Positions 13,158-14,068 of a stretch of 64,000 bases of DNA are shown here, piece after piece (the stretch's first letter is position 1; every line of letters begins with the position of its first letter). The stretch comes from a virus. The stretch lies in UHGV virus genome UHGV-0211472; one strand, written 5' to 3'. The notes under the pieces were generated by a model. The model saw nothing but the letters and a program-made list of their open reading frames with translations. It was not told the DNA's origin and made no database searches. Made by a program: the position numbers and the translations under genes.

Positions 13158-13427
13158 TTACTCTCCTAACAGCTTACGAATTTCACTACGGAAGTTATCA
13201 TATTCTTCAGGATATTCAAACCCACATTCAAGCAGTGCATAATGAACAACCTTCAACAAATCCTGAGTCTTGTTCTTATCTCTGTGTCGATAAGCATATT
13301 TGATCATGTTGGTTTGTTGGAAGTTCAACTGAGGGTTTGCATGATAAAATTCAATAGGTTGAATCTTCTTACTATCAGGGTTATAGTGGGAACCTCCCAC
13401 CATATTGTTCAGTGCTGGATTACTCAT
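13158..13427 (-). CDS. hypothetical protein (89 aa)
   Basis: ORF tightly packed between neighbours on the minus strand. Confidence 0.45.
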
Positions 13428-14068
13428 GCTACTAGTCCTTGTAGTTCTTCTTTATCAAAGTGCTTCTCTACCACATATTCATACAGATCTTTTAACTCTG
13501 CATAACGACGGTAGAAAGTTCCGTGTGACATACCAATAGTTTTCTGAATGTGATCATGAGGGATACCCAAGAAAATCATTGAGAACATATTAGCTAACTT
13601 CTGAGTATCCATCGTATCACTTAAATCTTGGAAGAAGTAGAAGATACGAGACTCCATGAAGGGGTCGCCAACAGAGTCTTGTTTATCCATAGCAATCTCT
13701 AAGGGACTGTCCACCATATCAGGGGTACGGAACATATCAGCCTCTGGAATGGAGTAGATACGACGGTCCCCTACAGTCTGCCTATTTGAACGTATAGACC
13801 AGATAATGTTCTTGACTCGATAAGTCATATGCTCTTGGTCTTTCTCATCCTCTAGGATTCTCTCATCCTGCTTAGCGAAAACAAATCTCCAAGCGTTCAA
13901 GAGCACTTCCTGTGCCACATCCTCTGCTTCATGGTAATCTCTGATATCATATATAAAGAACTTGTGAACCACTTTCCAGTTCACTTTATAAAACTCTTCA
14001 TAATTTGCGATGTACTTAATAGGGATTCCGTGAATGCGATATCTTGTAGGTGTTGTCTTCTTCGCCAT
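13424..14068 (-). CDS. sigma-70 family (ECF-like) sigma factor candidate
   Basis: region-2-like [16 protein letters not shown] and C-terminal HTH-like [22 protein letters not shown]; 214 aa. Confidence 0.45.

Follow-up and report, generated by a model that had tools for sequence, protein, structure and literature searches.

Does the minus-strand open reading frame (ORF) at 13424..14068 encode a sigma factor that redirects the host RNA polymerase (RNAP), and at which promoters would such a factor act? The sequence-only reading of this virus DNA described a 214-residue ECF-like phage sigma factor, noted the lack of a phage RNAP in the window (the whole 64,000-nucleotide stretch analysed here), and took repeated motifs in a divergent region as candidate cognate promoters. 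Phage sigma factors that retarget the host core RNAP to later gene classes include T4 gp55 as well as gp28 and gp33-34 of the B. subtilis phage SPO1. We find that the sigma factor call is correct and concerns a protein that has already been published, and that the proposed promoters point to the wrong sequences. Homology and contact residues give the following assignment.

13424..14068, minus strand: sigma factor gene, ortholog of phiEco32 gp36

Judged from its sequence, and with a probability of roughly 0.96, the product of this gene is gp36, the sigma factor of Kuravirus (phiEco32-type) phages, which would replace the host sigma factor and, with gp79, drive six tAATGTAtA promoters. Its function in the window phage is transferred from the 97%-identical ortholog.

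The ORF is present on the minus strand as claimed, with an ATG start and a 214-residue product that is 97.2% identical to phiEco32 gp36 across 214/214 residues. The same identity is obtained with PDB chain 9m7y_F ("RNA polymerase ECF sigma factor"; E 2.4e-143), which comes from a cryo-EM structure in which gp36, gp79 and promoter P68 are assembled with E. coli RNAP (PMC12276001). The protein also matches PHROG 1740, "RNA polymerase sigma factor" (E 5e-44). At the DNA level, the 4 kb around the ORF show 93-94% identity to E. coli podophages of the genus Kuravirus (Gordonclarkvirinae), for example LAMP, Bas92-94, MN05 and Paul, and the LAMP ortholog carries the label gp36, "putative RNA polymerase ECF sigma factor". 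Earlier treatments of gp36 are Savalia 2008 and Pavlova 2012, which we take as they are cited in PMC12276001; the protein is also treated in Xu et al. NAR 2025.

The published open complex, at 3.4 Å, provides the framework for a residue-level comparison. The N-terminal domain of gp36 (1-103) sits on the clamp helices via D44, E47, E49, D50 and E54, and its linker follows the path of sigma region 3.2 through the active-site cleft (PMC12276001). Promoter bases -14A, -13A, -12T and -11G are read by N95, S91, S94, E79 and H80; W90 and Y83 stack at the fork junction and R84 contacts a backbone phosphate (PMC12276001). The C-terminal domain (138-214) is placed on a rotated flap-tip helix via M138, I142, F166, L167 and F204, with R187 and Y186 contacting -37G and -34A (PMC12276001).

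These residues form the clamp, -10-region, flap-tip-helix and -35-region contact sets that we compared, and 20/20 of these published RNAP and DNA contacts are identical in the window protein. The six substitutions relative to gp36 (S21A, M39I, V71I, F209L, I213V and T214A) are conservative and all lie elsewhere. Residues F146, M164, L167 and I169, which bind gp79, are also kept, as read from the sequence. Near-identity to 9m7y_F and its published description thus assign a sigma2-linker-sigma4 fold on the clamp helices and flap, with a sigma2-like N-terminal domain at about 1-103, a linker, and a sigma4-like C-terminal domain at about 138-214 (limits from the published structure).

Two segments had been picked out earlier as region-2-like and region-4 helix-turn-helix-like. 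The first, residues 48-61, falls in the clamp-helix-binding helix of the gp36 structure (E49, D50, E54), and the second, residues 174-195, holds Y186 and R187, which contact the -35 region. Since both segments contain known contact residues, these region assignments are correct in substance. Judged by its sequence, the window protein belongs to the gp36 family on every testable criterion.

In phiEco32, the sigma70 holoenzyme transcribes early genes, and transcription of the middle and late classes falls to RNAP-gp36, whose promoters share AATGTA centred at -11.5 (PMC12276001). The second component of this switch, gp79, displaces sigma70 region 4 from the host RNAP, after which its helix 1 clamps the gp36 C-terminal domain and gp36 is stabilised on the enzyme; in vitro it stimulates RNAP-gp36 4-fold at P26 and 3-fold at P68 (PMC12276001). 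The window encodes this partner as well, at the following position.

29703..29951, minus strand: gp79 ortholog of 82 residues (tblastn, 82/82 identical; PHROG 8339, E 2e-56)

The window phage would therefore be expected to follow a scheme whose earlier steps have been shown for the ortholog system. Host sigma70-RNAP would transcribe the early genes. Bound to the RNAP clamp, gp79 would then expel sigma70 region 4 from the RNA exit channel, and gp36 would occupy the sigma position of the host core, its N-terminal domain reading AATG at -14 to -11 and opening the DNA. The sigma4-like domain would rest on the flap-tip helix with Y186 and R187 touching the -35 region, clamped by gp79 helix 1. In the last step, which we infer for the window phage, the holoenzyme would initiate at the three middle and three late tAATGTAtA promoters; the identical contact residues, the identical gp79 and the conserved promoters at orthologous sites all point to this. 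Formation of a holoenzyme with E. coli core RNAP, and initiation by it, are likewise carried over from the ortholog to the window protein. The earlier proposal of a sigma factor that redirects host RNAP to middle and late genes is thus supported through 97.2% identity to gp36, for which in vitro transcription and cryo-EM data exist.

The authors of the structural study compare this switch with T4 AsiA/MotA, in which a small phage protein likewise disables sigma70 region 4, shutting off host and early transcription, and a second protein supplies promoter specificity (PMC12276001). The two systems differ in that T4 retains and remodels sigma70, whereas the phiEco32-type system replaces it by a phage sigma factor. 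Among the known phage sigma factors, a further parallel exists.

T4 gp55 relies chiefly on a single -10-type element, as does gp36. The two differ in their helpers, T4 gp55 requiring gp33 and the sliding clamp and gp36 having the aid of gp79.

Three middle and three late gp36-type promoters are listed in the SU10 paper and its Table S2 (PMC4281155). Their counterparts in the window are given below; each span runs from the inferred -38 to +1, with start sites inferred from AATGTA being centred at -11.5.

52106..52144, plus strand: P6-type late promoter, TAATGTAGA, AATGTA at 52130-52135; 55/56 positions match phiEco32 P6; 11.6 bits; SU10 Table S2
60100..60138, plus strand: P13-type late promoter, TAATGTATA at 60123-60131, AATGTA from 60124; 15.9 bits; SU10 Table S2
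6873..6911, plus strand: P26-type late promoter, TAATGTATA at 6896-6904, AATGTA from 6897; upstream of the 1435-1450-residue gp26 homolog
15419..15457, minus strand: P40-type middle promoter, TAATGTATA at 15426-15434, AATGTA at 15428-15433; upstream of the gp40 homolog (14621..15367)
19903..19941, minus strand: P58-type middle promoter, TAATGTATA at 19910-19918, AATGTA at 19912-19917; from phiEco32 alignment, matrix and SU10 Table S2
23501..23539, minus strand: P68-type middle promoter, AAATGTATA at 23508-23516, AATGTA at 23510-23515; between ORFs 23139..23468 and 23541..23768

All six sites are intergenic, co-directional with the downstream genes and located at places orthologous to those in phiEco32. 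Aligned in register, they show an invariant AATGT, an intact AATGTA core, A at -34 in 6/6 and a purine at -37. Scored with a weight matrix derived from the six phiEco32 promoters alone, they account for six of the seven highest values in the window, at 11.6-15.9 bits. The exact copies of TAATGTATA are intergenic and co-directional in 4/4 cases (binomial p = 1.6e-5). When one mismatch to TAATGTATA is allowed, the whole window yields 21 matches against 20.3 expected from shuffled sequence, which is no excess. At this chance frequency, only location and orientation set the real sites apart.

Sequence conservation differs between sites. The P6 promoter TAATGTAGA is also conserved in the diverged Kuravirus 4E8. 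P68, whose phiEco32 counterpart is the promoter in the cryo-EM open complex (PMC12276001), differs from phiEco32 at 2/56 positions, neither of them at -37, -34 or -14 to -9. Upstream of about -18, both P40 and P58 diverge from phiEco32, P40 keeping G at -37 and A at -34; because of this altered upstream sequence, the strength of the two promoters could differ from that in phiEco32.

At P26, the first in-frame ATG of the 1450-residue ORF (6898) is the ATG within the promoter motif TAATGTATA itself, upstream of the inferred transcription start. By homology to phiEco32 gp26, the true start codon probably lies near 6943. The sole match of this ORF is to a PHROG of unknown function.

A candidate for the early, host-dependent stage is found elsewhere on the minus strand.

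47371..47703, minus strand: three near-consensus sigma70 early promoters, TTGACA at 47703, about 47555 and 47399, matching three early promoters of SU10/phiEco32

These promoters would represent the host-sigma70 stage that precedes gp36-dependent transcription. Two AATGTA hexamers, at 47683 and 47520, lie inside or just after two of them. Downstream of the three promoters, a 1.3-kb stretch (46458..47754, minus strand) holds no convincing ORFs and corresponds to an unannotated part of phiEco32 (72.8-74.7 kb); no Rfam family was matched in it at gathering thresholds. phiEco32 has a tRNA-Arg among its early genes, unlike the window, in the whole of which no tRNA genes were found.

Promoter positions must be read against the layout of the genome. 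The window is a circularly permuted Kuravirus genome: its first base aligns to about position 19120 of phiEco32, within gene 19, and phiEco32 position 1 aligns at 50471. The right end of phiEco32 joins there without a break and ends at about 50663, which places the genome ends as follows.

50471..50663, no strand assigned: 193-bp direct terminal repeat in a single collapsed copy, from the alignments of the phiEco32 ends

Terminal repeat annotations are also carried by the LAMP, Paul and 4E8 records. What had been described as a divergent region is thus the place where the two ends of a linear genome have been joined, the 193-bp terminal repeat being represented only once. Nor can the window be taken as the whole genome, a condition on which the sequence-only reading had based its argument about late transcription. 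About 6.5 kb, equivalent to phiEco32 12.6-19.1 kb, are missing; in phiEco32 this segment holds tail-fibre, holin, lysis and structural genes. By gene order, the last large ORF of the window (60927..63659) stands in place of phiEco32 gene 14.

The lack of a phage RNAP, in turn, holds up. Pfam scans of the 20 largest ORFs in the window gave DNA polymerase A, terminase, portal, tail-tip, amidoligase and amidotransferase domains and no RNAP domain, be it T7-like single-subunit, N4-like virion or multisubunit, and the annotation of the complete phiEco32 genome, including the segment missing from the window, contains no RNAP gene.

The motif proposed as the cognate promoter, TTAATGTGAGG, is found exactly twice in the window, on the plus strand at 50801 and 50917. 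It is contained in a longer repeat.

50768..50938, plus strand: 25-nt repeat GCCTTAAyGTGAnnnnsCCTTTAyG in three copies, at 50768, 50798 and 50914, including TTAATGTGAGG; conserved core sCCTTTAy

Could these repeats at 50.77-50.94 kb be additional gp36-dependent promoters? They have the AATG that gp36 recognises base by base at -14 to -11 in the structure, small plus-strand ORFs follow them in the same orientation, and the 11-mer is confined to these two sites within the window. However, all they share with the consensus is AATGT; the window has 156 copies of this pentamer, and intergenic DNA shows no enrichment for it (p = 0.12). The two sites have C/A and A/C at -37/-34, as opposed to a purine and A in all known sites. 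They score 0.4 and -2.6 bits, which is no better than background, compared with 11.6-15.9 bits for the six true sites, by a phiEco32-built matrix that rests on only six sequences. By the same matrix, TTAATGTGAGG was rejected as a gp36 promoter at ranks 3366 and 10655 among all window positions.

The AATG part of the repeats also varies. The first copy has AACGT, and copies in phage 4E8 read AACATGA and AATGTGG, with sCCTTTAy retained five times. As the 4E8 copies vary in the AATG half and keep sCCTTTA, the conserved part of the repeat is not AATG. The SU10 table, moreover, gives the left-end upstream region a potential sigma70 promoter and no late consensus (PMC4281155); our own scan for sigma70-type promoters across 49.7-51.3 kb found mediocre plus-strand matches only, none overlapping the proposed motifs. 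We therefore consider it very unlikely that the repeats and the motifs next to them add to the gp36 promoter set, and retain the six tAATGTAtA sites.

The 25-nt repeats instead form a separate family just inside the left terminal repeat. Their core, sCCTTTAy, has 6/16 of its window sites within 50488-50975; four of these are plus-strand sites (50784-50968), and the other two, at 50488 and 50593, are inverted. In 4E8, a more distant Kuravirus, there are five sCCTTTA copies at the corresponding place. In T7, arrays of short repeats flank the terminal repetition in a similar way. Given this clustering and the partial conservation in a diverged relative, one might speculate, at long odds, that the repeats and the sCCTTTAy cluster (50488-50975) are an undescribed Kuravirus regulatory or DNA-processing element. 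Such an element might consist of weak, variant start sites that respond to gp36/gp79 and set the timing of the small left-end ORFs, or of recognition sites used in concatemer processing beside the terminal repeat.

The term "ECF-like" needs closer consideration, as it raises the alternative of a conventional ECF (group 4) sigma factor of bacteria that was acquired from a host not long ago and would act at ECF-type promoters under anti-sigma control. Group 4 factors such as M. tuberculosis SigL (PDB 6dv9) and E. coli sigmaE share with the window protein the sigma2-linker-sigma4 layout, with neither region 1.1 nor a region 3 domain, and a recognisable core-binding helix motif, DVxQExxLxAW. There is weak region-2 similarity to SigL, and GenBank records give the protein the label "ECF sigma factor". 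The NCBIfam profile TIGR02937 (sigma70-ECF) is matched over nearly its full length, at profile positions 4-157 of 165, but with 20.5 bits against a cut-off of 42.9 (E 2.9e-4). Pfam Sigma70_r2 (PF04542) reaches 18.1 bits against a gathering score of 24 (E 0.0024), over residues 31-62 only, and no Pfam Sigma70 region-4 model matches at E up to 10. With every curated profile score below its cut-off and region 4 unmatched, the description as ECF-like stands for the two-domain architecture and fails as a family assignment.

Other features also speak against a bacterial ECF factor. Homologs in the phage collection are restricted to related Escherichia/Shigella phages, plus weak matches elsewhere that are confined to the N-terminal part (E 3e-3 to 4) and fall on annotated sigma factors of Salmonella, Proteus and Aeromonas phages. 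The gp36 promoters are dominated by a single AATGTA element with weak -35 contacts and lack the bipartite motif of the ECF type, and the partner protein is the co-activator gp79, with no anti-sigma factor present. In the structure, gp36 has a rotated helix 1 and a compact sigma4-like domain with a short helix 4, seated on a flap-tip helix turned by about 100 degrees. Recent capture of a bacterial ECF factor is accordingly still less probable than a promoter role for the repeats, and assignment to gp36 is preferred.

Least probable of all is that the ORF encodes a transcription regulator or anti-sigma-like RNAP-binding protein acting on the sigma70 holoenzyme, a reading that the sub-threshold generic sigma profiles, taken alone, would allow but that published core-enzyme-only reconstitution refutes for the ortholog: gp36 and core RNAP make up a holoenzyme that lacks sigma70 and initiates at P26 and P68 in vitro, and gp36 fills the sigma2, sigma3.2 and sigma4 positions in the 3.4 Å open complex. 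Because the Pfam and NCBIfam hits are sub-threshold, the identity of the protein as gp36 is settled instead by comparison with the PDB and with phage genomes; generic Sigma70 HMMs alone would leave this real sigma factor below threshold.

Upstream of the sigma gene are a gp36-type promoter and a terminator-like hairpin; the latter (14599..14582, minus strand) separates the sigma and spanin genes from the gp40 homolog and P40. The ATG of the sigma gene overlaps the preceding ORF's stop codon (TAATG), and that ORF itself sits inside an Rz-like spanin gene. Directly after the sigma gene follows, as in LAMP, an 89-residue DUF3310 ORF (13158..13427, minus strand), whose match to a PHROG with the annotation deoxynucleoside monophosphate kinase is limited to the C-terminal half of that PHROG. 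Genes for a 5'-3' exonuclease and an HNH endonuclease are found further downstream.

Compared with phiEco32, the window has the same Kuravirus type, a 214-residue sigma factor of 97.2% identity with the same contact residues, an identical gp79 and six promoters at orthologous sites. It differs in the six sigma substitutions, in the P40 and P58 sequences beyond about -18, and in lacking homologs of gp34 (ATP-binding), gp35 (GTP-binding) and gp37 (macro domain), as does LAMP.

The locus has little discovery value, because protein, partner, promoters and the structure on E. coli RNAP are published for a 97%-identical ortholog. Its value lies in annotation, as the window can confidently be given the label of a Kuravirus with the gp36/gp79 switch and six mapped promoter sites.

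A further feature of the window is a predicted group I intron at 26747..26957 on the minus strand (Rfam RF00028, 86.3 bits against a gathering score of 50, E 1.4e-20). It lies between ORFs 26152..26697 and 26945..28195, which together correspond to the 597-residue primase/helicase of phiEco32 (gp75). The intron stretch is covered by 1/98 related phage records (VTCCBPA_211), and the primase/helicase exons are contiguous in 11 of the best 12 of these 98 records.
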